64,000 bases of DNA from Eubacteriales bacterium. Lineage in GTDB: Bacteria; Bacillota; Clostridia; Christensenellales; CAG-917. The stretch's first letter is position 1. Every line of letters starts with the position of its first letter. The stretch lies in the NCBI GenBank assembly GCA_035449045.1, contig DAOTKC010000004.1, positions 4,414 through 68,413 on the forward strand, read 5' to 3'. The notes beneath the pieces are model-generated. The model saw nothing but the letters and a program-made list of their open reading frames with translations. It was not told the DNA's origin and searched no databases. This document shows, piece after piece, positions 3,107 through 50,284 of the stretch. The position numbers and the translations under genes are program-made.

Positions 3107-3451
3107 CTAATCCGTCAGTTTGCCCGCTTTTTCGAGCACGCGGAGCATGGCCGCCCGAACTTCGCAAAATCCGAGTCCGACTATGGTGTCCCGCGGAATA
3201 AAGACATAGCTGAAGCTTTTATCGACCTTGGGCAGGATGTCGCGGAAGCTTTCGCGAAGCAACCGCTTGACACGATTTCTTACCACGCTTTTACCGATTT
3301 TGGTGCTGACCGAAAACCCCGCCTTCATAGCGCGCGTCTTGGCGTAAACAACGGTGAGCTCGGCGGTGTGCGCCGCCTGTCCGCGCTTGTAAATAAACTT
3401 AAAGCCGGCGTCGGAACGAAGCCGGTAATCGGGCGCGGGGGACGCCGTCAT
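3107..3451 (-). CDS. rnpA: ribonuclease P protein component
   Basis: [24 protein letters not shown]...VSTKIGKSVVRNRVKRLLRESFR. The start ATG at 3451 overlaps the rpmH stop by 1 nt (TGATG). The upstream part of the 167-aa track ORF is the rpmH region read in another frame. Confidence 0.85.
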   Translation of the reverse strand: MTASPAPDYRLRSDAGFKFIYKRGQAAHTAELTVVYAKTRAMKAGFSVSTKIGKSVVRNRVKRLLRESFRDILPKVDKSFSYVFIPRDTIVGLGFCEVRAAMLRVLEKAGKLTD

Positions 3452-3585
3452 CAGGCGCTCAACCTCTTTCTGCCTCTGTTTCTGCGGGAAGCCAAAACCC
3501 TTCTGCCGCCGGTAGACTTCATTCTCTTGCGGAAGCCGTGAACTTTGCTTCTCTGTCTTTTCTTGGGTTGATAAGTCCTTTTCAT
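3451..3585 (-). CDS. rpmH: 50S ribosomal protein L34
   Basis: Below the ORF-track size cut-off. My translation is [44 protein letters not shown], preceded by AAGAGGT 8 nt upstream of the ATG. Confidence 0.95.
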
Positions 3586-7905: not shown

Positions 7906-10386
7906 ATGAGATATATAAAACAGCCCAAAAACCTGTCGCCGCGGGTGGAGTGGCTCAGAAACTATTTCTTTGAGGGTGTGGAGCGGGAATGGAACAACGA
8001 ATACCGCGTCTTCACGACCGGCACGCCTTGGGACGAGATGTATAACGAAGTGACTTATTACATTGTTCCCGAGACTTTCGCCTTTATGGGCGCATTTCAG
8101 AAATGCTTGCCGCAGGGCGCGAAAAAAATCGACGTCCCCGCCGACTTTTTCAAAAAGGACTTAGTCGAGCGCCGCGCCTGTTTCGTCAAAGAGGCGATGG
8201 TCAACCATGTGCCGAGGCATATTTTGCGGGGCGACCTTATCGCGGGCGCGGTTTTCAATCTCTTCACCTCGCACTGCCTGACAAAGGCGGAATATAAAGA
8301 GCGCGCCAAGCTCGTCTACGGCAAAAACGGGACGCGCGCGGCGGTCATAAAGTTTCATGACACCGGCTTCGGCAACGCCGGCGCCACTTCGGGGCATCTT
8401 ATTCCCGACTATGAAAGCGTGCTAAAATACGGCTTTGAGCACATCCTGCAAAGAGTCGAGGAGGCTTACTCCAAGCTGACGGAGGAAGAAAAGGCGTCGG
8501 AAAAGGGCGCCGAGCTCCGCGCCATGAAGACCGCGGCAGAGATGCCCATCGAACTGGCCGAAAAATACTCCGCGCTCTGCTCCTCGCTCGCCCAAAAAGA
8601 GAGCGACGCGCGCCGCAAAGAAGAACTTTTAAAAATGGCGGAAAACCTCAAAGTAGTGCCGCGCTACCCTGCCCGCGACTTTTGGCAGGCGATTCAGTCG
8701 CTTTGGCTCACCCACATGCTCGTCATGTCGGACGAAAACTACCCCGGTCCGGGCGTATCCTTCGGGCGGCTCGACCAATACCTCTACCCCTACTATAATA
8801 AGTCGCGCGAGGAAGGTATGAGCGAGGAGTTCATGAAAGAAATACTCGGTTGCTTCTGGGTGCATTGCAACACCGCCTACGACGCCCAAATCCGCGTCGG
8901 CGCCAATCAGGGAATAACGGCGGGCTTCGGCCAGCTGTTCATGATAAGCGGCGTAGGGCCCGACGGGGGCGACCTCACCAACGATTTAAGCTATCTTCTC
9001 CTCGACGTCATCGACGATATGAGCCCGATACTCGAGCCCAAGCCCAACGTGCGGCTCCACAAAAACTCGCCCGACAAGCTTTTAGATAAAGTCGTCGACA
9101 TGATTGCGTCCAGCCAAGGGGCGCCCTTCCTCATAAACTTCGACGAGCGTTCGATGGCGGGGCTTCTCCGCGAGGCCGAGATTGCCGGCATAGCCGACAA
9201 AATCAACCTTGAAAACGTCTGGAACTATGCCGCGGTGGGCTGCCTCGAAAACACCATGGTGGGCAACGACCGTTCGGGCACCGTCGACATCAACTTAAAT
9301 CTTTTGAAAGCGGTCGAGCTTGCGCTCGGCGGCAATCTTAAAACTTACGCCGACGCGCTCTGGAACAAGCCCTATAAGAGCGTTGAGCGTGGCGCGAGCA
9401 CCGGCGACCCCGAAAAATTTAGGACTTTTGAGGAATTTTATAAGGCCTATCTCAAGCAGACCGAGTTCATCGTAAAGCATATTTACGAGCTTTATGACCG
9501 CACCGACGCCGTTCGCGCCAAGTTCCATCCCACGCCCTATCTTTCGCTGTTGGTCAAAGGCTGCATAGAAAGCGCCACCGACATAACGCGGGGCGGCGCC
9601 GAGATAAAATTCGCCACCGTGGAGGGTGTCACCTTCGCGACGACCGTCGACAGCCTGCTTGCAATAAAATATCTCGTTTTCGACAAAAAGCTCTGCACTA
9701 TGAAGGAGCTTATCGAAGCGCTTAAGGCGAATTGGGATGGCTATGACAAGCTCGCCGCCGCCGCCAAATACCGCGCGCCTAAATTCGGCCGCGACGACGA
9801 CGAGGCCGACAAGCTCGCCCGCGACGTCATGGAATTTTGGGCGGCGGAAACTTGGAAATACAAGACTACGGCGACAGGCGTTCAGCTCCGCCCCGGCATG
9901 CTGAGCTGGAACTACTGGGTGGGCGACTCCCATATTCTGCCCGCCTCGCCCGACGGCAGAAAATGCGGACAATTTTTATCCAACGCCATCTGCCCCAGCA
10001 ACGGCGCCGACATAAACGGCCCGACCGCCAACTTAAACTCGGTGGGCAAGGCGCTGGGCGGCAAGGCCGAAAAGGGCGACTACCTCGACTATCTAAACTG
10101 CCTTCCCAACGGCGCCAGCCACACGCTGACGCTGTCGCCCGCGCTGCTTCGCGACGGCTCGCACAAAGAAAAGCTGAAGGCATTTTTGAGGGGCGCAATT
10201 GAAAACGGCGGCACCGCGCTTCAGCTCAACGTGCTTGACGTCGACACCTTGATTGACGCCCAGAAGCACCCCGAGGAATACCGCCACCTACTGGTGCGCG
10301 TCACCGGCTACAACGCCTATTTTACCTCAATCGGGCGCGAGCTCCAAAACGAGATTATCGCGAGAGAATCGCACAACAGGTTTTAA
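7906..10386 (+). CDS. glycyl radical enzyme (PFL-like fold, eliminase-like Cys-x-Glu loop), substrate unknown
   Basis: 826 aa. C-terminal glycine-radical motif LLVRVTGYNAYF (Gly codon at 10306-10308). Cys loop AAVGCLENT (TGC at 9241-9243). GRE-typical ARDFWQAIQSLW..GRLDQYLYPYY. GGGAGG SD. Confidence 0.9.
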   Translation: MRYIKQPKNLSPRVEWLRNYFFEGVEREWNNEYRVFTTGTPWDEMYNEVTYYIVPETFAFMGAFQKCLPQGAKKIDVPADFFKKDLVERRACFVKEAMVNHVPRHILRGDLIAGAVFNLFTSHCLTKAEYKERAKLVYGKNGTRAAVIKFHDTGFGNAGATSGHLIPDYESVLKYGFEHILQRVEEAYSKLTEEEKASEKGAELRAMKTAAEMPIELAEKYSALCSSLAQKESDARRKEELLKMAENLKVVPRYPARDFWQAIQSLWLTHMLVMSDENYPGPGVSFGRLDQYLYPYYNKSREEGMSEEFMKEILGCFWVHCNTAYDAQIRVGANQGITAGFGQLFMISGVGPDGGDLTNDLSYLLLDVIDDMSPILEPKPNVRLHKNSPDKLLDKVVDMIASSQGAPFLINFDERSMAGLLREAEIAGIADKINLENVWNYAAVGCLENTMVGNDRSGTVDINLNLLKAVELALGGNLKTYADALWNKPYKSVERGASTGDPEKFRTFEEFYKAYLKQTEFIVKHIYELYDRTDAVRAKFHPTPYLSLLVKGCIESATDITRGGAEIKFATVEGVTFATTVDSLLAIKYLVFDKKLCTMKELIEALKANWDGYDKLAAAAKYRAPKFGRDDDEADKLARDVMEFWAAETWKYKTTATGVQLRPGMLSWNYWVGDSHILPASPDGRKCGQFLSNAICPSNGADINGPTANLNSVGKALGGKAEKGDYLDYLNCLPNGASHTLTLSPALLRDGSHKEKLKAFLRGAIENGGTALQLNVLDVDTLIDAQKHPEEYRHLLVRVTGYNAYFTSIGRELQNEIIARESHNRF

Positions 10387-10441
10387 CAACTCATAACGAA
10401 AGCCTATAAAACCGCTCAACTTATTGTCATTAGCTAAAAAA

Positions 10442-11359
10442 ATGGAAGCAAAGATATTGGATATTCAACGGCTGTCGACCGAGGACGGGCCGGGCATACG
10501 CACCACGGTGTTCTTCAAGGGTTGCAACCTTGCCTGCAAGTGGTGCCACAACCCCGAGAGCATAAGCTCGCGCTTCGAGCGCTACTGGGCGGAGGAAAAG
10601 TGCATTTTCTGTAAAACCTGCCTTGAAGCCTGCGCCGCGGGCGCACTTTCGTTTTCCGAAAACGGCTTGATTTTTGATCTTGAAAAATGCTTAAACTGCG
10701 GCCGCTGCGGCGAGGCCTGCCCCACTCTCGCGATTGAAACAAAAGGGCGTTTAATCACCGAAACCGAACTTTATCGTGAATTATTGAAAGATAAAGCCTA
10801 TTTTGGCGCGAACGGCGGCGTTACGCTGTCGGGCGGCGAGCCCATGCTTCAAAGCGATTTTTTGCTTTTGCTTTTAAAGCTCTTGAAAGCTTCGGGAGTT
10901 CATACCGCGCTTGATACAGCCGGCCTTTACGGCGAAGAAAGGCTTGCGCCGGTTCTGCCGTATTTGGACCTTGTGCTGTTTGACTTAAAGTTTATCGATG
11001 CCGCCGAGCACAAGAAATGGGCGGCCGCCGACAATGCACAGATATTGAAAAACGCGCGGATGCTGGGCGCGCTCGACTATCCCAAAGTCTGGGTTCGAAC
11101 GCCGCTCATCCCCGGCGCTACCGCGACGCCCGAGAACATTGCGGCCATCGGCGCCTTTATAAAAGAAAGCATGCCCAATCTTGAAAGATGGGAACTGCCT
11201 GCCTTCAACAACTTGTCGCGGCGGAAATATACCTTGCTCGGGCGGGAATGGGAATTTAAATCGACCGAGCTCATGAAAAGGAAGGAGCTTGACGCGCTCG
11301 CAGGTGTCGCCAAAGCGTATTTTCCCGCCGCCGTCTGGACGGGCAGGGCTACGGATTAA
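10442..11359 (+). CDS. glycyl-radical enzyme activating protein (radical SAM with two ferredoxin-type cluster motifs)
   Basis: CNLACKWCHNPE (CX3CX2C), CIFCKTCLEAC and CLNCGRCGEACP. Directly downstream of the GRE. The track ORF starts at a TTG at 10424; the ATG at 10442 is the more likely start. Confidence 0.9.
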   Translation: MEAKILDIQRLSTEDGPGIRTTVFFKGCNLACKWCHNPESISSRFERYWAEEKCIFCKTCLEACAAGALSFSENGLIFDLEKCLNCGRCGEACPTLAIETKGRLITETELYRELLKDKAYFGANGGVTLSGGEPMLQSDFLLLLLKLLKASGVHTALDTAGLYGEERLAPVLPYLDLVLFDLKFIDAAEHKKWAAADNAQILKNARMLGALDYPKVWVRTPLIPGATATPENIAAIGAFIKESMPNLERWELPAFNNLSRRKYTLLGREWEFKSTELMKRKELDALAGVAKAYFPAAVWTGRATD

Positions 11360-11457
11360 TTAATTCAGCTTATTTACCGCGCTGTTTCGGCTGCAAGTTG
11401 CGGGCCGGCTGCGCTACCTTATGAAAATTAAAAATTTAGGCGAAAAGGGAGATATTT

Positions 11458-12303
11458 ATGAACACCAAATTCAACGAAGAGGCCAAGGAAAAATTTGCCG
11501 TCACCGGAAAAATAGGGCTTATCGCCACGGTGGACCCGAGCGGCATGCCGCACATCACCTTTATCAACACCATCGACACAAAGGACGACGATATTCTAAC
11601 TTTCGGCGAATTTATCCACGGGCTTTCCAAGCAATATATGAAAAGCTACAAAAAAATCGGCTTTTTCGTCATGAATATGGAAAAAGAGTGGTGGACGGGC
11701 ACCGCCGAATATCTTCGCACCGAGGTGACGGGCGAGGAATTCGACAAATACAACAACCAAAAGCTCTTTCGTTACAACACTTATTTCGGAATAGGCAAGG
11801 TCCACTACTTCGCGCTCAAGGATATTTCGGACAAGACCGCGCTTTCAATGGGCGCAGTGGCCGGCTCCGCTATTTACGCAAAAATCGCCAAAAACTTCGC
11901 CAAAAAATCTCCCGCGGGCGACGTAAAAATCAAGGGGCTTACTAAAAAACTCTCTTCCAAGCTCGGCGACCTCCGCTTTATCGCCTACATCGACGGCGAG
12001 GGCTATCCAAGAATACTGCCCGTCATTCAAGCCGCGCTGAAGGACGACCGCGGCCGCCTCGTCATCCCGCTCTCCCCCTATGCCGAGAAGCTTGAAAACC
12101 TTGACTCGGGCGTCAAAACCGCCGTTTTCCTTGCCGACCTTTCACTCTCGACCGCTCTGCTCGAGGGCTCATTCGGCGGAATTAAAACATTTTTAGGCAA
12201 AAAATACGCCATTTTCGACACCGAGCGGGTCTATAACTCGCTGGTGCCCGTGCCCGGCTATATCTACCCCTTCGACGACACTAAATATAAAGAACAAGAT
12301 TAA
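11458..12303 (+). CDS. hypothetical protein, possibly a tandem split-barrel (PNPOx-like FMN-binding) fold
   Basis: 281-aa ORF with an AAGGGAG SD. GKIGLIATVDPSGMPHITFIN resembles the PNPOx-family N-terminal strand. A second half (DLRFIAYIDGEGYPRILPV) looks like an internal duplication. The fold assignment is tentative. Confidence 0.45.
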   Translation: MNTKFNEEAKEKFAVTGKIGLIATVDPSGMPHITFINTIDTKDDDILTFGEFIHGLSKQYMKSYKKIGFFVMNMEKEWWTGTAEYLRTEVTGEEFDKYNNQKLFRYNTYFGIGKVHYFALKDISDKTALSMGAVAGSAIYAKIAKNFAKKSPAGDVKIKGLTKKLSSKLGDLRFIAYIDGEGYPRILPVIQAALKDDRGRLVIPLSPYAEKLENLDSGVKTAVFLADLSLSTALLEGSFGGIKTFLGKKYAIFDTERVYNSLVPVPGYIYPFDDTKYKEQD

Positions 12304-12442: not shown

Positions 12443-13543
12443 TTACATAACGATACGGATAGGAAGGATGAGGTAGAGCTCGGGCAAATCGGAGGCCGGC
12501 CTCATGATGCCCGCCGCCGTCGACGTCGTGAACGACATTTTAACCGAGGCGTCGGTGATGGCGCGGAGGCTCTCCATGATGTATTTGGAATTGAAGCCGA
12601 TAGCGAGGTCCTTGCCCTCCGTTTTGATGGGAATATCCTCGACGATGTCGCCGGCCTCGCCTTCCGCCTTTATGTTCAGGTTGTTTTCGGCTATCTCGAA
12701 GCGCACGACGTTCTTTTTATCATTTTTATTGAACTGCGACGCGCGGTTGACGGCGTCCTCGAAATCCTTTTTGTCGGAAATAAACTCGGTTGTGAACTCG
12801 GTCGGAATAATTTTTTTATAATTGATGAAGTCGCCCTCGATGAGCCTTGTCACGATGACGGTGTGGAAGAGGTCTATTTTTAAATAATTCTTTTCGACGG
12901 CCACCTCAAGCTCGTTGTCGTCGTCGTCGATAAGCCTGGCTATCTCGCTGAGGCTTCTTGCCGGCACTATAATGGTCTTTCCTTCGCCCGTGTAATTGAC
13001 GGCGGCGGATGCAAGCGCCAAACGGTAGCCGTTTGATGCGACGGCGCTGACGTTTCCATCCGTCAAATCCAGACAAACGCCCTTGAGTATAGGGCGGCTG
13101 TCTTCCTGCGCGGCGTTAAAAATCACTTTGTTTATTATGTTTTTAAAATCCTTCTTTTGAATTTTAAAGCTCGTTTCCTCTTTTACTTCTTTGAAGGTGG
13201 GGTATTCGTAGACGTTCATTGCCGCGAAATTGGCAACGCCGCCGTAAATAAACTTGACGCGCTCGCGGTTGGTGGCGTCTATTTCGATTGTGACGGCGGG
13301 AAGCCCGCGCGCAAAATCGGCAAGGCTTCTGCCGTTAATCAATGCCTCTCCTTCGATTTTGACGTCGGCGTTAATCTTTTTTTCAATGGCGAGCTCGAGG
13401 TCGGTCGAGGACAGTATCAAAACGTCGCCCTCCGCTTTAAGTTTTATCCCTTCTAGTATCGGGTTTAATTTTTTGAGCGGCATCGCCTTGGTAACTTTAG
13501 ATACCGCATCCGCAAAATCAGTGGAATCACAAAACAGTTTCAT
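12443..13543 (-). CDS. dnaN: DNA polymerase III subunit beta (sliding clamp)
   Basis: 366 aa, MKLFCDSTDFADAVSKVTKAMP...; ends LILPIRIVM; downstream of dnaA. Confidence 0.95.
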   Translation of the reverse strand: MKLFCDSTDFADAVSKVTKAMPLKKLNPILEGIKLKAEGDVLILSSTDLELAIEKKINADVKIEGEALINGRSLADFARGLPAVTIEIDATNRERVKFIYGGVANFAAMNVYEYPTFKEVKEETSFKIQKKDFKNIINKVIFNAAQEDSRPILKGVCLDLTDGNVSAVASNGYRLALASAAVNYTGEGKTIIVPARSLSEIARLIDDDDNELEVAVEKNYLKIDLFHTVIVTRLIEGDFINYKKIIPTEFTTEFISDKKDFEDAVNRASQFNKNDKKNVVRFEIAENNLNIKAEGEAGDIVEDIPIKTEGKDLAIGFNSKYIMESLRAITDASVKMSFTTSTAAGIMRPASDLPELYLILPIRIVM

Positions 13544-13968
13544 TTTTGCCTCTTTTCATTTTCATATAGTATTTTTAATAATAATAATAACAATAAGCGC
13601 TGTGGATTTGTTTACATCCCATCCATTCCCTTATATTTCAACACATTAACCCCAAAAAACAATGTTGACAAGCCGTGCATAACCTTTTCCCTTATTCCAC
13701 ATTTCCCCATTTTCGCCCTTTCCGCTCAAAAAATCCCCTCGCCTTCCCTCTCAATAAGCCCTAAATTCTCCAAATCCCACCTCACAAACATCTCAAATTA
13801 AAAAGATAAAGTTTAGCAAGAGGCACTCGGTTTTTAAATCTAAATTAAAATAGAATTAAAACACGGGATGCCGGGCTAGGCTCGTCGAAAAAGGGGCAGG
13901 CGCGTATTATAATACGTAACTGCCTCACGACGAAGACAGAAACAACGCCCCGCGCTCATATCTGAATT
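13544..13968 (-). other. candidate oriC segment (dnaA-dnaN spacer)
   Basis: 425-bp ORF-free spacer containing a DnaA box, GC cluster, DnaA-trio array and AT-rich stretch next to dnaN. A second box-like site, TATTCCACA, lies at 13693-13701. Confidence 0.65.
13576..13609 (-). promoter_or_regulatory. DnaA box (AAATCCACA) + GCGC + seven DnaA-trios (TTA TTG TTA TTA TTA TTA TTA)
   Basis: Read directly on the minus strand at 13609->13576. The order and spacing match the published basal unwinding system architecture. Confidence 0.65.
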
Positions 13969-15357
13969 CTACCTATGTAATAACATGTCTTTGATGTCTT
14001 GCAACTGTATCCGAAGTTTAGGGTTAGTTTTCAGCCCCTCCGCAATCTTATCCCTAGCGTGTATGACGGTGGTGTGGTCGCGGCCGCCGAAATAGCCGCC
14101 GATGGTGACGAGCGGGAGGGACAGCATCTCGGTTATGAGATAAATAGCTATCATTCTCGGTTCGACAATCTCTTTATTCTTCTTTTTGCCCGTTATGTCG
14201 GCGGTGGAGATGTTGAAATATTTGCAGGTGAAAAAGATGATGTCGTTGGCGTCTATGGTATCTCTCGGCACGTCGATGATGTCTTTTAAAGCCTCTCTTG
14301 CTGCGGCCACCGTGCTGACGGGATGGCCCGACAGCGAGGAGTAGAAGATGACTTTATTTAAAAGCCCTTCCATATCGCGGACGTTGGATTCGGCGTTTTC
14401 GGCGATGAAGTGGGCGACTTCGGGAGTCAGGAAGAAACCCTCCTGCTTGGCCTTTTCTTCCAAAATAGCGATTCTGGTCTCGAGATCGGGCGGCTGGATA
14501 TCGACGGTCAAGCCCCAAGTGAAACGGGTTCTGAGACGCTCGGAAAGATGGGCGATATCCTTGGGCGGACGGTCGGAGGAGAAAATAATTTGCTTGTTCA
14601 TGTGGTGGAGGTCGTTGAAAATGTGGAAGATGGCCTCCTGAACGCCGTCCTTTCCCGCCGTGTATTGAATGTCGTCGAGCATAAGGACGTCGACAAGGCG
14701 GTATTTTTCGCGGAACTTTCTATTAAGCTCTGAGTTGTTACTCTGCCGGATGACATCAAGGTATTCGTTTAAAAATGAGTTGGTCGAAACGTAGAGCACC
14801 TTGATTTGCGGCTTATTTTTTTGTATGTAGTTGCCGATGGCGTGCATCATGTGCGTCTTGCCGAGGCCGACGCCGCCGTAAATAAACAGCGGGTTAAATT
14901 TAGTGCCGGGACAGTCGGCAACCGCCTTGGCCGCCGCCGCCGCGAACTCGTTGGAGCTGCCCACAATGAAGTTGTCGAAGGTGTATTTTTTGTTGAAGGA
15001 AAAAAGCGTGTCGCGGGGGTCGGCCGCGGCATCTTTTATGATAAAGCCGGTGTCGGGCAGCGCCTCGTCCTGACGGTTTAAGTATTCTTCCTTTTCGTCC
15101 TCTCTTATGATTTCGACGCCGGCGACGGAGACGCCCGCCGTCGACTTGGCCGATTCGATGACCTCTTCGGCGATGGTGTCTTTATAGCGCGCCTCGATGG
15201 TCTTTTTGGAAACGTCGGAAGGCGCCGCCAAAACCAGCGTGTTCTTGACAAAACACACCGGCTCCAGCCGCTGCACCCAAACCTCGAAGCCGATTGCGTG
15301 AATCTTGGCCGATAGGCGGCTTAGCGCTTCTTTCCACAGGGAATCCAAGTTGACCAT
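13969..15357 (-). CDS. dnaA: chromosomal replication initiator protein DnaA
   Basis: Walker A GGVGLGKTHMMHAIGN; C-terminal DNA-binding GGRDHTTVIHARDKI. The start is set at the ATG at 15357 (MVNLDSLW). The track ORF begins two codons earlier, at a GTG at 15363. Confidence 0.96.
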   Translation of the reverse strand: MVNLDSLWKEALSRLSAKIHAIGFEVWVQRLEPVCFVKNTLVLAAPSDVSKKTIEARYKDTIAEEVIESAKSTAGVSVAGVEIIREDEKEEYLNRQDEALPDTGFIIKDAAADPRDTLFSFNKKYTFDNFIVGSSNEFAAAAAKAVADCPGTKFNPLFIYGGVGLGKTHMMHAIGNYIQKNKPQIKVLYVSTNSFLNEYLDVIRQSNNSELNRKFREKYRLVDVLMLDDIQYTAGKDGVQEAIFHIFNDLHHMNKQIIFSSDRPPKDIAHLSERLRTRFTWGLTVDIQPPDLETRIAILEEKAKQEGFFLTPEVAHFIAENAESNVRDMEGLLNKVIFYSSLSGHPVSTVAAAREALKDIIDVPRDTIDANDIIFFTCKYFNISTADITGKKKNKEIVEPRMIAIYLITEMLSLPLVTIGGYFGGRDHTTVIHARDKIAEGLKTNPKLRIQLQDIKDMLLHR

Positions 15358-15363
15358 ATGCAC

Positions 15364-15392
15364 ATTATAATATTTTTCCGCTTGAAATTCAA
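15364..15392 (-). promoter_or_regulatory. predicted dnaA promoter: TTGAAT-17-TATAAT, with the -10 ending 6 nt before the ATG at 15357
   Basis: The reverse complement of 15387-15392 is TTGAAT. The reverse complement of 15364-15369 is TATAAT. Confidence 0.5.
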
Positions 15393-15409
15393 GTGTTTTA
15401 GGATATAAT
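15382..15409 (+). promoter_or_regulatory. predicted recF promoter: TTGAAA-16-TATAAT, with the -10 ending 6 nt before the ATG at 15416
   Basis: TTGAAA at 15382-15387 and TATAAT at 15404-15409. No SD precedes the recF ATG. Confidence 0.5.
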
Positions 15410-15415
15410 AAAATA

Positions 15416-16492
15416 ATGGACGCAACCCTCCTAAAGCTTAAAAACTTCCGAAACTACCTAGAAAAAGCGGTGGAGTTTTCGAGCGGATTAAACGTTATCG
15501 AGGGTAAGAACGCGACGGGTAAAACCAACCTTTTGGAGGCGGTCTATCTTTCGGCGTTCGGCCGTTCGCCCCGTGCGGTCAAAGACAAGGAAATGATTAA
15601 CCACGGCGCTTCTCAAGCGCAAGTCCGTCTTAATTTAGAAAAAAAGTTCCGCTCCCACAAAATCGAAGTTTTTTTATTAGATAACAACAAAAAAAGCGTG
15701 CTGATTGACGGCATTCCCGCCGCCCGCTCCAACGAGCTGCTCGGCATGCTCTCCGTCGTCTATTTTTCGCCCGACGAGCTAAAGCTCATAAAAAACTCGC
15801 CCGAGGAACGCCGCCGCTTTATGGACGTCAGCCTCTGCCAGCAGAAAAAGGCCTACTTTTTCGCGCTTTCGGGCTACAATCGCCTTCTAAAACAGCGGAA
15901 CGCACTGCTTAAAGAAAGCAACTCAAAGGCAATCGCCGACACGCTGGATATCTGGGACGCCGAGATGGCAAAGACGGGCGCCGAGATAATTTTTGAGCGC
16001 GCCGCCTTTTTAAAGGGATTGGAGGCCGATGCCCGCCGCGCTCACTACGCGATAAGCGGCGGCGGCGAGGAGCTATCCCTTTTATACGAAACCGAAACTT
16101 CGGGACAAACCAAAGAGGAGCTTAGGGCGGGTATTTTGGAAGCGCTCAAGGCCGGCCGAGAGCGTGATTTGAATCTTAAATATACCGGCGCCGGCCCCCA
16201 TCGCGACGATATTAAAATTGCGCTCGACGGCCGCGACGCCAGAAAATTCGCGTCCCAAGGCCAAATCCGCACCTCGACGCTGGCGCTTAAGGTTGCCGAA
16301 ACCGCGCTCATTAAAGCGGAAACGGGCGAAAGTCCGGTGCTTCTTTTGGACGACGTGCTGTCGGAGCTCGACGAGTCCCGCCAAGCCGCCCTTTTGAATT
16401 TCGTTTCGGGGACACAGGTCATAGTGAGCTGCACCGAGTTCAAGCTTTCTGCGGTAAAGCCCGATAATATAATTAGAACAACGCCCGTTTAG
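15416..16492 (+). CDS. recF: DNA replication and repair protein RecF
   Basis: LKLKNFRNY...GKNATGKTNLLEAVY Walker A; LLLDDVLSELD Walker B/signature. Confidence 0.95.
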   Translation: MDATLLKLKNFRNYLEKAVEFSSGLNVIEGKNATGKTNLLEAVYLSAFGRSPRAVKDKEMINHGASQAQVRLNLEKKFRSHKIEVFLLDNNKKSVLIDGIPAARSNELLGMLSVVYFSPDELKLIKNSPEERRRFMDVSLCQQKKAYFFALSGYNRLLKQRNALLKESNSKAIADTLDIWDAEMAKTGAEIIFERAAFLKGLEADARRAHYAISGGGEELSLLYETETSGQTKEELRAGILEALKAGRERDLNLKYTGAGPHRDDIKIALDGRDARKFASQGQIRTSTLALKVAETALIKAETGESPVLLLDDVLSELDESRQAALLNFVSGTQVIVSCTEFKLSAVKPDNIIRTTPV

Positions 16493-16598: not shown

Positions 16599-16627
16599 TT
16601 GCCAATATGTTTATTATATGATATAAT
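16599..16627 (+). promoter_or_regulatory. predicted gyrB promoter: TTGCCA-17-(TGa)TATAAT
   Basis: TTGCCA at 16599-16604, TATAAT at 16622-16627, with an extended -10 TG at 16619-16620. This implies an about 270-nt leader. Confidence 0.5.
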
Positions 16628-16768
16628 ACTCTATAATTATATTATCTTAAATATGTGCGCGTGCATACGCGCGGGCAATTTTTTAGCTACGCAGCGGCAG
16701 ACAAGGATTAACCCGCGCAATATAACGGCATAAATGATACTAACGAACAGTTAAACGAAGAGCCTTAA

Positions 16769-16895
16769 CCAAGCTAAAAACCAAGCTAAAAACCAAGCTA
16801 AAAAATCAAGCTAAAAAATCAAGCTAAAAAATCAAGCTAAAAAATCAAGCTAAAAAACCAAGCTAAAAACCGAGGTAAAAAGCCGAGGTTAAGGA
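16769..16895 (+). repeat. tandem 12/13-bp array: eight CCAAGCTAAAAA / TCAAGCTAAAAAA units plus two degenerate CCGAGGT units, ending in the gyrB SD
   Basis: AAGCTAAAAA starts at 16771, 16783, 16795, 16808, 16821, 16834, 16847 and 16860. These are followed by CCGAGGTAAAAAG and CCGAGGTTAAGGAG. Confidence 0.95.
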
Positions 16896-21379: not shown

Positions 21380-21454
21380 CGAAAAACTTTGGATAGCGGC
21401 GCGGTGCGCCCGAACGAAAAATTAATAATTAGTAATAATAATGAATAACTTCGG
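21361..21454. repeat. dispersed intergenic repeat family, locus D (A-rich orientation), overlapping the gyrA stop codon
   Basis: GGCTGCGCCGAACGAATAACGAAAAACTTTGGATAGCGGCGCGGTGCGCCCGAACGAAAAATTAATAATTAGTAATAATAATGAATAAC aligns with loci A and C. Confidence 0.75.
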
Positions 21455-39739: not shown

Positions 39740-40200
39740 ATTCCCTTTTTAAGCTTTCCTTGCAGTTTAAATCGGACGCCACATATTTGCCGCTCGTTAA
39801 GCGGCCTGTTCTCAAATGCACGAAGCATAAATAGACTCGCGTAAGCGTTCGCGTCCGCAAAAGCAGACTCCTTAACAGCAGCATACCCTTGAAACTCGCA
39901 TTAGCGTTCCGCGCCGAGGAGCCGAACCACGCCGCGCGCTATATATCGAGCGGAATAATTGTGACGACGCGCCGAGTTTACCTTGCGAGCAAAATCACCG
40001 TTAAACGAACAATTGACACGCACTCGGCTAATCTATACCCTCATTCTAAAAACCGGAATGCTCAATACCTATTTTTTAATTCACTAAGCCCGCTACAAAT
40101 CATTCAACCGCGAGCCACGGGAACTCCGTCGCGAACCCGGATTCACAACACAAACAAAAATCGCGGTAATTTTCGACATATTTTCGCAAATTACTTGCCG

Positions 40201-40216
40201 TGTTTCACGTGGAACA
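40201..40216. promoter_or_regulatory. parS-like site TGTTTCACGTGGAACA
   Basis: 15/16 match to the Firmicutes parS consensus TGTTNCACGTGAAACA. Confidence 0.7.
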
Positions 40217-40911
40217 ATTTGTAGAAAAACGCCCATATTATCGTGACTTTCTGGCGCTTTTAGGATAAAAACAGTGCATTTTTTGTTTTATGGGTCGCAG
40301 CGCGTCGGACCGTGGCTAAAAACGCCGCGCGTCGCCGCAAAAAGCCCGAGCTCGCATAAAAAAGCCGCCTGCTTTCCCGAATGCGTGAGGGTTCGCCGAG
40401 GATAAGCTCGCCCGAGGTCGTCTTTGCGGCAAAACGCCAAAAACACTCATATCCACACAAAAGCCCCGTTCGATGATAAAAGGGCGGCCTTTCCGCCTAA
40501 TCGAGTCCGGCAACCACCCCTTTTGCTCCGAGCGGATTTAGCGCTCCGGATTACTCTTAAATAGGGCTTTTGCCTGCCCGCCTTGCGCCATGACGACCTT
40601 ACTTAACTAATTTCGTCCCGAAAGGACGATTTAATGCACTCTTGTGGTTGCAGTAGCGAACAAATTACGCCTCTTTGCCCCCTAAATGGCTAAAATGATT
40701 ATAATTGCAGTTAAATAGGCCGCGATTGCGTTTATTTGCCTTGTGTGCAGGGCGATACAGGCCCATTTTCTCGTGCAATCCGGTCTTCTTCCAATGCCTC
40801 GCCAAAGGTAAATTAAGACGCGCTAACCTTCCGGCGTCCCAGGTCTCTTGCGCGCGTGTAATAAACCTCGAAAGCGGCTTGAAAATCTCTATTTTTTGTA
40901 GAATATTTATA

Positions 40912-40927
40912 TGTTCCACGTGGAACT
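40912..40927. promoter_or_regulatory. parS-like site TGTTCCACGTGGAACT (perfect 14-bp palindrome GTTCCACGTGGAAC)
   Basis: 14/16 match to the parS consensus. Its right half-site is the same as that of the 40201 site. Confidence 0.65.
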
Positions 40928-40942
40928 ATTTTGGGGACAAAT

Positions 40943-40958
40943 TGTTTCACGCGAAACA
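40943..40958. promoter_or_regulatory. parS-like site TGTTTCACGCGAAACA
   Basis: 15/16 match to the parS consensus. It lies 15 bp after the previous site. Confidence 0.65.
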
Positions 40959-41266
40959 TCGCAAATTTTATTTTTCGCGCTTTTTAGGACAAAATAGGGA
41001 CAAGCCGCACAAAAGTAGGTTAAACATAGGAAAAACACTTGAAAATCCGCTACCATTTTAGGGAGTTATGGGAAGTGGAAATGTGGAAAAATAAAAAATT
41101 TCTTTCTTCGTGTTTTTTCACAGCAAAAAATATAGAGCTTTCTTCGTGTAATTTAAGAGCATGTTTTTTTAATGAATTTTAAGCTTATTCATGAATATAA
41201 AAATGGCCGTTTGGACATGCTTATTTTAAGATATTTTTGGAGGCATTTTTTTTGAAAGGAAAGCAT

Positions 41267-41419
41267 ATGATGACTGTTTGCGCTGGTTGCGGAAGCCCAA
41301 TTGATCCTGAAAGCGCCTCAAAATGTCCTATGTGCGGCAATGCGTATTGCCCTACCTGCACGAGTTCGGCTAATAAAATATGCAGTCATTGCTCGTCGGA
41401 AACCAAGTTTTTGCATTGA
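41267..41419 (+). CDS. small Cys-rich protein (50 aa), putative double zinc ribbon
   Basis: MMTVCAGCGSPIDPESASKCPMCGNAYCPTCTSSANKICSHCSS has four CxxC pairs. AAAGGAAAG SD. A strong terminator follows. Confidence 0.5.
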   Translation: MMTVCAGCGSPIDPESASKCPMCGNAYCPTCTSSANKICSHCSSETKFLH

Positions 41420-41473
41420 CTGCGATTTAATCGGCGCATTTCTTCAGCGGAATTTTTAACTTTCTTATAGCGA

Positions 41474-41501
41474 AAAACGCGCTTCTGCGGCGCGTTTTTT
41501 T
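41474..41501 (+). terminator. terminator after the zinc-ribbon gene
   Basis: AACGCGC-TTCTGCG-GCGCGTTTTTTT. Confidence 0.8.
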
Positions 41502-41656
41502 AGTCTTTGTTCCACGATATTTTTTACCTTATATTATACTTTGTATAATATAAAATGCGAAATTTATCTTTGGGCGGTCTGCGGCGTTTGCTGCCTGCTC
41601 GCGAAACAGCCACTTATTTTCTCCCCACCAGATGTTTTCATCTGACGGGGACCTCG

Positions 41657-41840
41657 ATAAAGTTCGTGCGGGCTTATTTCGGGGTTCCCATTGAATGCCA
41701 GTCATCAATGGGGTAATTTCGAGCCTACATTCCCATCCCATATCTTAATTTCGCTGATTTGGAATTATGTTAACAAAACCCCTATCATTAAATTGCTCGG
41801 CGTTCCGCTTATAAAGCTCGTGCGGGCTTATTTCGGGGTT
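41657..41840. repeat. pair of 30-bp direct repeats (ATAAAG(T/C)TCGTGCGGGCTTATTTCGGGGTT) spaced 154 bp apart
   Basis: Copies at 41657-41686 and 41811-41840, with 1 mismatch. Confidence 0.9.
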
Positions 41841-41850
41841 TGACAAGGAT

Positions 41851-43233
41851 TTAATGGGGGTAAGTTAGGGTTAAGGTTGCAGAGAGGGAGTAATGGTATT
41901 CTTTGCAGGCGGTGACCTTAACGGTGTAGGTTTGACCCGAAACGACGAAGAATGAAATGTCAAAAGAGTTGTCGGTAAGGTCGGTTGCGATTATGATGCC
42001 GTTTAAAGATACCGAGTAGACGGCGCCCACTATTTCGTCCCAGCTTAAAAACGCGCCGTCCACGGCAAGCGAAAATGTTTGGGTGATGTCAAGATAGGTG
42101 CAATAGGTCATTTCCGCCGAATTCTCGGACTCGCGGCTTTCCAAAACGTGTTTAAGCGATATGCGGTGCTCGCCCGCCGCACTTAGGAGTTCGCCCGGGA
42201 TTTTAAATTTGAAAGAGCCGTCGTCTTGAGAAATAAGAGCATCGCGCTCGATGGCATAATCTTCGCCGTCAATAATCAGAGAAATTTCGGCATAAGAAGC
42301 GGACTCGAAGAAATACACGTAAACGCCGTCGTCGCCGATAAACAGCCCGAGGGGAAGGGGCGGCGGCAGGGGACGGTCATAAAAAATTGTCACGATGTTT
42401 GATGTGATGCTGTATTTGGCGCCCGAAGGCAAAAGCCCGCAAACGACCAAATAGACTTGGTGTTCGCCGTCGCAATCCGCATAATCCGCGATATCGAAGC
42501 CCGACGCCGCGCCTAGGTAGGCTTGGCCGTCTAAATAGAGTGTAAGGCCTAAAGCTCCCTCAGGAGTTTGCCAAATAACGCGCGTGCCCGAGGCTTGAAC
42601 AACAACTTCGGGCGGCTCTTCGGTCACGCCCTCCGCCTCGAAGTATGCCGCAATTTCGGTATTTTTAACGATAATAAAGGTATATTCGGCGTTTTCAGAA
42701 ACTTGCGCGCCGCTCATTGTCCAATGCGAAAAGCGGTAACCAAGATCGGGAACGGCGGTAAGCGTTATCTCGGCGGCGAGCAAGGCGCCGCTCGCCAAAA
42801 GCTCGATTTCACCGCAAAACTCGGCGCCGTCAAAAAGTATTTTGCCGCCGTCCGGCACCGCTATCGTGACGGTATACTTAATGTCGTCGGCCTCTTCGCT
42901 CTTTGTTGCGGCTATGACTATATCGGCGGCGTCGCCGAATACGTCGTATTTCGGGATATCGTAGCCTTCTTTACCGAAAGTAAGCGTTGACGGGCAGGGG
43001 ATGCCGTTGAGCAAGAAATGCCCGTCCAGGTCGGTTGCAGCGGCAAAACTGCCGTCGACAAAAACCGAAACGCCCGAAAGGCCTTCGTCTTCACAGCTCA
43101 CTCTGCCCGATACCGTTACCGTCTTATCAAGAAAGTCCTCACCGCCGTCCTCCGCTTGGCAGGACGCCGCCGCCAAAATGAAAACCGCCAAAACCAGCGC
43201 GGCAAGCATTAATTTTAGGACGAGCTTTTTCAT
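41851..43233 (-). CDS. surface lipoprotein with a CarboxypepD_reg-like domain, a GYxFxxW-type repeat and FN3-like domains
   Basis: MKKLVLKLMLAALVLAVFILAAASC lipobox. VSGRVSCEDEGLSGVSVFVDG...DGHFLLNGIP. LTAVPDLGYRFSHWTMSG. The start ATG at 43233 overlaps the upstream stop (ATGA). Confidence 0.7.
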   Translation of the reverse strand: MKKLVLKLMLAALVLAVFILAAASCQAEDGGEDFLDKTVTVSGRVSCEDEGLSGVSVFVDGSFAAATDLDGHFLLNGIPCPSTLTFGKEGYDIPKYDVFGDAADIVIAATKSEEADDIKYTVTIAVPDGGKILFDGAEFCGEIELLASGALLAAEITLTAVPDLGYRFSHWTMSGAQVSENAEYTFIIVKNTEIAAYFEAEGVTEEPPEVVVQASGTRVIWQTPEGALGLTLYLDGQAYLGAASGFDIADYADCDGEHQVYLVVCGLLPSGAKYSITSNIVTIFYDRPLPPPLPLGLFIGDDGVYVYFFESASYAEISLIIDGEDYAIERDALISQDDGSFKFKIPGELLSAAGEHRISLKHVLESRESENSAEMTYCTYLDITQTFSLAVDGAFLSWDEIVGAVYSVSLNGIIIATDLTDNSFDISFFVVSGQTYTVKVTACKEYHYSLSATLTLTYPH

Positions 43234-49192: not shown

Positions 49193-50284
49193 ATGAAAAT
49201 TATCGTCATCCCCGACAGCTTCAAGGGCACGATTAAAGCGTCCGAGGCGGCGGCAATCATTGCCGCCGAGGCGGCGCGCGTCTATCCCTTTGCCGAGATT
49301 TCGGAATATCCCATCGCCGACGGCGGTGAGGGCACGCTCGACTGCTTTTTCAAGATTTTGGGCGGGCGATATATCGAAAAAGAGGTGACGGGCCCCAATT
49401 TCAAAAAGATAACGGCTCGCTATCTTGAGGCCGGCGAAACCGCCGTCGTCGAGCTTGCCGAAGCGGCGGGGCTTCCTCTTGCCAACCCCAGAGACCCTCT
49501 CAACACCACCACTTACGGCGTCGGCGAGCTTATCGGCGCCGCGCTTTCGTCGGGCGCAAAGCGCGTGATTCTGGGCATGGGCGGCAGCGCAACCAACGAC
49601 ATGGGCGCGGGTATGGCGGCGGCGCTCGGCGTCGTCTTCAAAGATAAAGACGGCCGCCCCTTTATTCCCACGGGCGGCACGCTCTCCAAGATTGCCAAAA
49701 TTGAATCCCTTAAAAATCTGAACATAATGGCGCTCTGCGACGTAAAAAACCCGCTCACGGGCGAAAACGGCGCGGCATTCGTCTATGCGCCCCAAAAGGG
49801 AGCCGATAAAAGAGCCGTTTTAACGCTTGACGACGGCCTTAAGCACGCAAACGACATTTTGAAAAATTACGGCATCGACGTTTCGGATGTAGAGGGCGCG
49901 GGCGCGGCGGGCGGCACGGGCGGCGGCGTTCTCGCCTTTTTGGGCGGCGAGCTTAAGCGCGGCATCGACACAGTTTTGGAGCTTATCGGCTTTGGGAAAA
50001 AAGCGCGGACGGCCGATTTAATTGTAACGGGCGAGGGCTCGCTGGACCGCCAAAGCTTTTACGGCAAGGTCATCGACGGCATCATTAGCCGGAGCGGCGG
50101 CACGACGGTGGTTGCCATCGTGGGCATTTCCAAAATCCAAAACCACAGGGATTTCGGCTTGGCCGCCGTCGTCGAGACAAACTATCTGCACCGCCCCTTC
50201 GAGGAAATTAAGCCCACCGCCAAAGAGGACCTTAAAGCGGCCGCCGCAAAATTCTTTGAAAACCTGCCCGAATATCTGAACTGA
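49193..50284 (+). CDS. glxK: glycerate kinase
   Basis: MKIIVIPDSFKGTIKASEAA...PIADGGEGT...VTGEGSLDRQS. Confidence 0.9.
   Translation: MKIIVIPDSFKGTIKASEAAAIIAAEAARVYPFAEISEYPIADGGEGTLDCFFKILGGRYIEKEVTGPNFKKITARYLEAGETAVVELAEAAGLPLANPRDPLNTTTYGVGELIGAALSSGAKRVILGMGGSATNDMGAGMAAALGVVFKDKDGRPFIPTGGTLSKIAKIESLKNLNIMALCDVKNPLTGENGAAFVYAPQKGADKRAVLTLDDGLKHANDILKNYGIDVSDVEGAGAAGGTGGGVLAFLGGELKRGIDTVLELIGFGKKARTADLIVTGEGSLDRQSFYGKVIDGIISRSGGTTVVAIVGISKIQNHRDFGLAAVVETNYLHRPFEEIKPTAKEDLKAAAAKFFENLPEYLN

Follow-up and report, generated by a model that had tools for sequence, protein, structure and literature searches.

The dnaA-dnaN spacer and its probable unwinding module

The DNA examined here, called the window, is a stretch of 64,000 nt from contig DAOTKC010000004.1 (GenBank assembly GCA_035449045.1) of an uncultured gut Clostridia species. 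It carries dnaA (13969-15363, minus strand; Pfam DnaA_N, Bac_DnaA and Bac_DnaA_C) and dnaN (12443-13543, minus strand; Pfam DNA_pol3_beta domains 1-3, with its ATG at 13543), and our subject is the 425-nt spacer between these two genes, a candidate for the chromosomal origin of replication (oriC). In gene calls from other samples dnaA starts at the ATG at 15357, giving a protein of 462 aa (L081-L088), and an identical dnaN protein is found on 22 contigs of other samples. The recF, gyrB and gyrA genes lie on the strand opposite dnaA, and recF begins 52-58 nt upstream of dnaA. No tRNA was found in the 64-kb window, and Rfam gave no match at the gathering threshold in the whole window and none at E<=1 in the spacer.

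Read on the minus strand toward dnaN, the spacer contains two overlapping DnaA boxes. The upstream one, ATGTAAACA (13609-13617, minus strand; columns 5-13 of our alignment A1), has 4 mismatches to the consensus TTATCCACA and stands at the position equivalent to box #6 of Bacillus subtilis; the trio-proximal one, AAATCCACA (13601-13609, minus strand), has 2 mismatches, is equivalent to box #7 and shares one base with its neighbor. They are followed by the 4-bp GC cluster GCGC (13597-13600, minus strand), which is GCCC, GGGC or GCGG in relatives, and by a run of seven DnaA-trios (13576-13596). This run reads TTA TTG TTA TTA TTA TTA TTA on the minus strand (13596-13576) and 3'-AAT AAC AAT AAT AAT AAT AAT-5' on the plus strand, the predicted DnaA-bound single strand. 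Beyond the trios lies an A/T-rich unwinding region (DNA unwinding element, DUE) of 32 nt (13544-13575), which includes the dnaN ribosome-binding site (RBS) at about 13549-13553.

The central adenine is present in all seven trios, six of which are AAT and none of which is the consensus GAT. On the minus strand the run shows the TnnT repeats by which the DnaD recognition element (DRE) is defined in B. subtilis (PMC10201434). By nearest-neighbor free energy, only one other 30-bp locus in the window is less stable than the trio/DUE segment 13565-13594 (rank 5 of 63,970 windows). A strict pattern of a box, a gap of 2-7 nt and at least five in-phase trios matched once in the window and in none of 100 Markov-1 simulated windows. 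An earlier sequence-only reading of this DNA had described AAATCCACA, GCGC, seven trios and an A/T-rich run into the Shine-Dalgarno sequence and ATG of dnaN, and its coordinates and strings were all correct. The six AAT trios have the [G/A]AT form that it cites; its second, oppositely oriented box was also found, as TATTCCACA on the plus strand at 13693-13701.

Published search rules for a basal unwinding system (BUS; PMC8287927) call for a box with at most 2 mismatches to TTATCCACA that adjoins the trios and is oriented toward them. They allow an optional tandem second box with at most 4 mismatches, 0-3 bp apart, the upstream box usually being nearer the consensus, and a spacer of at most 16 bp between box and first trio, typically with a G/C cluster of about 4 bp; they further call for at least 3 consecutive trios whose middle base on the DnaA-bound strand is adenine, (.A.){3,}, with the consensus 3'-GAT-5'. 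The module at 13609-13544 conforms to all of these sequence rules. The box AAATCCACA has 2 mismatches and points toward the trios, and ATGTAAACA, with 4, occupies the tandem position in register with its counterparts in the relatives and B. subtilis. The spacer is the 4 bp of GCGC, or 12 bp if measured from the upstream box, as for B. subtilis, and the seven trios are followed by an unstable A/T-rich element. The relative strength of the tandem boxes is reversed compared with the usual BUS, the upstream box being the weaker one in the window.

A basal unwinding system at incC of the B. subtilis oriC was reportedly described by Richardson in 2016 and 2019 and by Pelliciari in 2021. The window shares with incC its location between dnaA and dnaN and the order and orientation of the elements. 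In both, the two boxes overlap by one base in the same register, the G/C cluster is 4 bp long, the trios have A in their middle position on the DnaA-bound strand, an A/T-rich DUE follows and distal boxes are found upstream; the core of B. subtilis box #7, AATCCACA, is identical to the core of the proximal box in the window. The two differ in that B. subtilis box #6 is a consensus box and essential (PMC6669920), whereas its equivalent in the window has 4 mismatches; in that the B. subtilis trios are mostly 3'-GAT-5' and those of the window 3'-AAT-5'; and in that B. subtilis has an upstream incA/B box cluster, whereas the window has none and recF abuts dnaA. Only in the window does the DUE run directly into the dnaN RBS and a 190-nt strand-skewed tract overlap the distal boxes. 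The sequence-only reading had likened the order of the elements (box, GC cluster, trios, A/T-rich DNA) to that of B. subtilis, which is borne out by the BUS rules and by alignment A1, and the core that it gave for the trio-proximal B. subtilis box is indeed AATCCACA, in the scaffold ACTTATCCACAAATCCACAGGCCC plus TACTATTACTTCTACTA (PMC8287927 supplement).

Two predicted BUS entries (PMC8287927 supplementary table) resemble the window in other respects. The entry for Listeria monocytogenes has an identical proximal box and cluster, TTAGGTGT followed by CGCG (3'-5'), and that for Oceanobacillus iheyensis has AAT-rich trio runs like GATAATAATAATAAT; both have a perfect upstream box, AATAGGTGT (0 mismatches), which the window does not. 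The oriC2 of Clostridioides difficile (PMC7561715) is likewise a Clostridia origin with unwinding in the dnaA-dnaN spacer and a trio run before the DUE. The C. difficile origin is bipartite, as oriC2 needed oriC1, located in the rpmH-dnaA spacer, for unwinding in vitro (PMC7561715), whereas in the window rpmH is 10 kb away and only 52-58 nt with two weak boxes lie upstream of dnaA. The downstream part of a bipartite origin, a box cluster with trios and a DUE after dnaA, is present in the window; upstream of dnaA we found no box cluster, only the two 2-mismatch boxes at the dnaA start.

Boxes with at most 2 mismatches are denser in the spacer than anywhere else in the window, with 6 in 425 nt as compared with about 1.2 expected from the window-wide density (Poisson P ~0.001). 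The box scan placed a distal cluster at 13646-13709 (minus strand), inside the skewed tract, consisting of the inverted boxes TGGGGAAAT (13709-13701) and TGTGGAATA (13701-13693), the direct boxes TTATGCACG (13682-13674) and TTGTCAACA (13671-13663), and a further inverted box, TGGGGTTAA (13654-13646). The DnaA protein keeps the domain IV motifs PR..YL and GGRDHTTVIHA, as in B. subtilis (8btg) and E. coli (1j1v), and because these contact motifs are conserved, standard box specificity is expected. Across the window, 19 boxes lie within one mismatch of TTATCCACA where 7.15 are expected (none of 100 shuffles reached 19), and none of the 19 is in the spacer.

Conservation and the case for a chromosomal origin

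The host species is present in at least 9 independent samples, and the spacer is 425 nt long in all of them, with only two variable sites. The nearest relatives have 60-69% DnaA identity and the others at most 57%, down to about 41%; they are uncultured Clostridia metagenome-assembled genomes (some of them Christensenellales-like), 'Faecalibacterium sp. CAG:1138' and Ca. Onthoplasma. The regions upstream of dnaN in 13 relatives can be aligned without a shift in register to both the window and the B. subtilis scaffold (alignment A1), sharing the order of a TTATCCACA-type box, an overlapping second box, a G/C cluster, TTA/TCA trios and an A-run. The box #6 position is TTATCCACA, TTATAAACA or TTATACACA in the relatives and B. 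subtilis, and the A-rich run follows the trios in all aligned relatives. The window and its relatives also have in common an inverted-then-direct order of distal boxes, for example TGTGGATATGTG.ACA ... TTATCCAC. Gene order around dnaA is highly variable in this clade, and in two relatives in which dnaN is inverted (L004 and L007) tandem boxes and A/T-rich DNA are still found upstream of dnaN. The box/GC/trio module is present in the relatives; its absence from close relatives that retain dnaA-dnaN had been named in the sequence-only reading as grounds for giving up the proposal.

Most relatives' spacers are 192-265 nt long and lead from dnaA directly into the box cluster. The window spacer is about twice as long as most of these, and the extra DNA consists of a hairpin after dnaA, an A/T-rich linker (13801-13885) without counterpart in the relatives' short spacers, and the skewed tract. 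The hairpin (13886-13924, minus strand; GGCAG..CGTATTA/TAATACG..CTGCC, then CCTTTTT) is terminator-like. It contains an inverted repeat, I9 (13895-13924), its T-run is visible in the sequence, and the RNA of 13880-13968 folds at -27.9 kcal/mol (z = -1.64); a consensus terminator scan did not report a hairpin at 13886-13924.

The closest non-conspecific relatives, L167 (4610-4916) and L170 (2610-2877), with 66-67% DnaA identity, have spacers of 548 and 579 nt. Their extra DNA, about 290 nt, sits between the trios and dnaN, whereas the window has its extra DNA upstream of the boxes; spacers have thus expanded independently on either side of the module. In most relatives (L001, L005, L008, L011, L014-L016, L171 and L173) the spacer also carries, between the distal and proximal boxes, two copies of an A/T-centered palindrome of the CACAATATATTGTG type, of which the window has only the degenerate versions CAACATTGTT and AATGTGTTGAAATAT. 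This palindrome may be an unrecognized conserved origin element of the clade.

No box cluster was found upstream of dnaA in the window or in its relatives, which have 0-1 boxes there. Because such a cluster is absent and recF begins 52-58 nt from dnaA, the origin looks like a single-part one, and the clade as a whole appears to have such origins, in contrast to B. subtilis and C. difficile.

Because the module follows the BUS rules and aligns with B. subtilis and 13 relatives, it is very probably the unwinding site of oriC, and its order, orientation, spacing and in-register conservation support what the sequence-only reading had proposed for it. Known origin-proximal markers are also nearby: the rpmH operon lies at about 3.6 kb, and three parS sites are located at 40.2-41.0 kb. 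The genes rpmH, dnaN, recF, gyrB and gyrA all run in the direction that forks from 13.6 kb would take. We consider it quite likely that the dnaA-dnaN spacer is the chromosomal oriC of this uncultured gut Clostridia species, with an unwinding site of the BUS type. That the origin fires at 13.6 kb we infer strongly, which is not a demonstration.

By analogy with B. subtilis, domain IV of DnaA would bind the tandem boxes ATGTAAACA and AAATCCACA. ATP-DnaA, aided by the distal boxes at 13646-13709, would oligomerize across GCGC onto the plus-strand trios (3'-AAT/AAC-5'), stretch this strand and open the 30-50 bp of A/T-rich DNA next to the trios, a stretch overlapping the dnaN RBS. The helicase would be loaded at the opened region, and the opposite strand would offer TnnT repeats of the kind that DnaD recognizes. 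What the analysis establishes is the anatomy of the sequence, how far it is conserved, its composition statistics and the markers near the origin; DnaA binding, unwinding, firing and any role of the skewed tract are inferred.

Several observations weigh against the spacer as the origin. The oriC2 of C. difficile alone failed to unwind in vitro (PMC7561715), and the window has no equivalent of oriC1. No spacer box is within 1 mismatch of TTATCCACA, both boxes named in the sequence-only reading having 2, whereas 12 of the 13 relatives have at least one such box; the box #6 position has 4 mismatches where B. subtilis has an essential consensus box, and altogether the boxes of the window's origin are the weakest of the compared set. 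The conspecific copies differ by 0-6 in 2.9 kb and are too alike to show constraint. In the 64-kb window there is no GC-skew minimum, no change in GC3 skew and no switch of gene orientation at 13.7 kb: genes to the right of this point are 18 plus and 16 minus, those to the left 4 plus and 6 minus, and the maximum of the cumulative skew is at 8.5 kb. Strand signals are too weak in 64 kb, and GC, cumulative and GC3/AT3 skew and the gene-strand counts give no signal either way.

A rival explanation is that the module is not an active origin at all, being a relic or a region for dnaN promotion or DnaA autoregulation, with replication starting elsewhere on the chromosome. In some bacteria, such as E. 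coli, oriC does not lie next to dnaA. The missing switch of skew and gene orientation at 13.7 kb would fit this explanation, as would the absence of any spacer box within 1 mismatch when the window as a whole has 19 against 7 expected, and a promoter-like site can be recognized in which the box serves as -35 and the trios as -10. A module without origin function is, however, hard to reconcile with the retention of all its parts (box, box, GC cluster, trios and A/T-rich DNA) down to about 41% DnaA identity and through local inversions, or with the parS sites and rpmH operon nearby. Elsewhere in the window the module does not recur; boxes are dense in just one further region, 39.9-40.6 kb, which is flanked by convergent gene blocks and contains the parS sites. 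We therefore regard an inactive module as unlikely. Far less probable still is that the TTA run is a trinucleotide microsatellite that happens to lie beside a box-like word. Tandem Repeats Finder (TRF) does call a period-3 array of 7 copies, a second (YTA)4 run is present at 21430-21441, and 13 of 200 simulated windows have some (YTA)>=4 run. The joint pattern appeared in none of 100 simulations, however, and the position, phase and box distance of the array are homologous in 13 relatives and B. subtilis, by which a chance microsatellite is effectively refuted. The length of the run showed no polymorphism among 8 same-species copies.

Two other regions of the window were considered and rejected. 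The recF-gyrB gap, which holds the least stable DNA in the window, was rejected as the origin: it includes a terminator, a promoter-like region and a 13-nt tandem repeat, with no boxes. The region 39.7-41.9 kb, with the second-highest box density, was rejected as an oriC1-like partner: convergent genes flank it and the parS sites are located in it, which makes it centromere-like and not an origin.

The strand-skewed tract beside the boxes

The tract overlapping the distal boxes (13611-13800) has 69 C, 9 G, 56 A and 56 T on its plus strand, with G3-G4 runs on the minus strand; the manual count of 69 C and 9 G in the sequence-only reading was exact. No other 190-nt segment of the window has a GC skew as extreme as its -0.77 (next 0.49; standard deviation 0.118). 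In 1.18 Mb of other dnaA loci, similar ratios were confined to A/T-rich windows in which G+C is scarce (5 vs 37, for example). The sequence-only reading had asked whether the tract is conserved: it is absent from all relatives compared (L167, L170, L171, L173 and L001-L019, with 57-69% DnaA identity), and the largest absolute skew in any 150-nt window of the relatives' spacers is 0.38. With respect to the module it is on the side of the double-stranded box scaffold and not on the unwinding side. The tract is a real, statistically extreme and lineage-specific addition to the box-scaffold side of the origin.

Within the tract, two direct boxes were observed as compared with 0.03 expected from composition (none of 2000 shuffles reached 2), and these two boxes hold 5 of the 9 C's on the tract's minus strand. 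An explanation of the tract as an array of inverted low-affinity boxes was rejected because composition suffices to account for them (6 observed vs 6.1 expected at <=3 mismatches; P=0.09 at <=2). TRF and other repeat finders detected no repeats within the tract, and it showed no RNA family (Rfam, E<=1) and no plasmid similarity; a phage similarity search matched only the low-complexity trio repeat, outside the tract. The G-runs are spaced 17, 13, 10, 20, 10, 17, 38, 23 and 10 nt apart, without helical phasing, and GGA motifs of the CsrA type number 11 against about 7 expected from composition, which is not notable. A leftward (sense) transcript of the tract would be G-rich and C-poor, and a rightward (antisense) one C-rich, G-poor and unstructured; the sense-strand RNA is itself unstructured (z = +1.15).

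Two further features of the tract were noted. The segment 13722-13734 (minus strand ATTTTTTGAGCGG) is perfectly complementary over 13 nt to about codons 22-26 of dnaN (13468-13480) and 88% complementary over 16 nt to an early recF site (15472-15487); this could be chance, with an estimated 0.03 or so such pairs expected in 2.1 kb. A 32-aa open reading frame (ORF), MGKCGIREKVMHGLSTLFFGVNVLKYKGMDGM (13613-13711, minus strand), is called as a gene on one metagenome contig (L089) and is probably spurious.

Most likely the tract is a spacer or insulator that separates the origin from the dnaA terminator. A count of 69:9 speaks against this, as such a skew cannot arise by drift, and the tract as a mere spacer therefore leaves its composition unexplained. 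There is some room, though not much, for the tract to be a selected accessory element of oriC, either a Rho-dependent insulator or an R-loop or non-B-DNA element that compensates for the weak boxes. We know of no selected strand-skewed accessory element described for a bacterial oriC.

The sequence-only reading had suggested that the G-rich minus strand might form G-quadruplexes (G4) or R-loops. In such a case G-quadruplexes, or R-loops stabilized during sense transcription, would aid or regulate origin opening, and R-loop priming is known from ColE1 and mitochondrial origins. Ten G3-G4 runs lie on the minus strand, and the orientation would favor R-loops, with a G-rich sense RNA on a C-rich template. 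The G-quadruplex part of the suggestion was not supported. With four runs of G>=3 and loops of 1-7, or relaxed to 1-12, no motif was found on either strand of 13500-14000. The G4Hunter analysis that the reading had called for gave a spacer peak of only 1.32 (block 13683-13761), below the usual cut-off of 1.5 in a 25-nt window, equaled or beaten by many of the 44 blocks of the window that reach 1.2. The tract is not a dedicated G-quadruplex element. The strongest G4 candidates lie in other parts of the window, with the G4Hunter maximum of 2.16 at 42342-42383 and the only two canonical motifs at 1822-1851 and 49894-49920 (plus strand). The R-loop part is borderline. Criteria of the QmRLFS type require three runs of G3+ with loops of at most 10, followed by at least 100 nt with at least 40% G. 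The initiation-zone motif is present (GGGCTTATTGAGAGGGAAGGCGAGGGG, 13761-13735), but the elongation zone on the minus strand has 29-34% G. Moreover, the terminator-like hairpin stands between dnaA and the tract with no good sense promoter after it, the tract and the DUE lie on opposite sides of the boxes, 15-200 bp apart, all relatives lack the tract, and in the literature that we searched no DnaA-dependent oriC is reported to have a G4 or R-loop element among its normal components. We thus consider a structure-forming role in origin opening improbable.

A Rho-utilization (rut)-like site is a less improbable role for the tract, although still a doubtful one. It would load Rho and insulate the origin and dnaA by stopping spurious or regulated rightward transcripts, started in the DUE/trio region or reading in from dnaN antisense, before they enter dnaA in antisense. 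The C-rich, G-poor, unstructured RNA of about 78 nt or more that characterizes rut sites is found at 13704-13781 (plus strand), which with 35 C and 4 G is the top 78-nt RNA window for C minus G on either strand. The plus-strand RNA of the whole 190 nt folds at only -3.5 kcal/mol and has 52 YC dimers in 189 positions. Three weak plus-strand promoter-like sites (9/12 matches) lie just upstream, at 13553-13588, and plus-strand genes at 7906-12303 converge on dnaN. Composition is nevertheless the sole basis for this role, no strong plus-strand promoter was found, relatives with equally A/T-rich DUEs lack such a tract, and Rho is not established for the genome, in which rho was not looked for. The tract resembles rut sites, ColE1 RNA II and the mitochondrial conserved sequence block II (CSB II) in its extreme C/G strand asymmetry over about 80-190 nt beside a replication start, and rut sites in particular in its predicted unstructured C-rich transcript on one strand. 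ColE1 and CSB II, however, have a long uninterrupted G run, which the tract does not, and unlike R-loop-primed origins the window is expected to replicate in a DnaA-dependent manner; the tract itself is known from sequence alone.

Surroundings of the probable origin and significance

The divergent dnaA/recF region (15357-15416) has a gap of 52-58 nt with two overlapping consensus-like promoters, TTGAAT-17-TATAAT and TTGAAA-16-TATAAT. The -10 boxes of dnaA and recF end about 6-10 nt before the start codons, and the mRNAs look leaderless or nearly so. On either side of the dnaA start is a DnaA box with 2 mismatches (15330-15338 and 15356-15364). A 13-nt tandem repeat, AACCAAGCTAAAA (16767-16881; 9.1 copies, 93% matches), immediately precedes the gyrB start and puts regularly spaced A-tracts in the gyrB leader or promoter; it may take part in a supercoiling-sensitive control of this gene. 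Just before the repeat comes 16604-16653, the 50 bp of lowest stability in the window.

An rpmH-like ORF at about 3450-3582 (minus strand) heads a minus-strand cluster from about 3.6 kb to 0.5 kb, whose genes we take to be the classical rnpA, yidC and jag. This cluster is 10 kb from dnaA and not adjacent to it, with a glycyl-radical enzyme and its activase (7906-11359, plus strand) in between.

A pattern search for parS gave 6 strand-hits at 3 sites as compared with 0.05 expected. One site, at 40201-40216, is the perfect B. subtilis consensus TGTTCCACGTGAAACA, and those at 40912-40927 and 40943-40958 have 2 mismatches each. They lie in a 2.1-kb ORF-poor and A/T-richer region between convergent gene blocks (39740-41850), which is probably a centromere-like region of the chromosome about 27 kb from the origin. 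According to passages in PMC7614844 and PMC4333373, parS sites cluster near oriC; here they give positional support for origin proximity and are not a part of oriC. The same region has a near-identical 27-nt direct repeat, TAAAG(T/C)TCGTGCGGGCTTATTTCGGGGTT, twice in its last 250 nt or so (coordinates by eye), and a 60-aa Cys-rich zinc-ribbon-like ORF at 41237-41419 (plus strand).

The sequence comparisons give good support for an origin of the known BUS kind that departs modestly from the usual pattern in two respects, its single-part layout and the degenerate state of its upstream box. The skewed tract itself would become of interest only if probing of transcription or structure shows that it is active. 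The BUS-type architecture, so far tested in few cultured species, would by these comparisons extend to poorly known uncultured gut Clostridia. Gene order around dnaA is fluid in this clade, yet the box-box-GC-trio module stays put. A single-part origin is suggested for these organisms, unlike the bipartite ones of B. subtilis and C. difficile, and the degenerate equivalent of box #6 would offer a natural test of which BUS elements are required.

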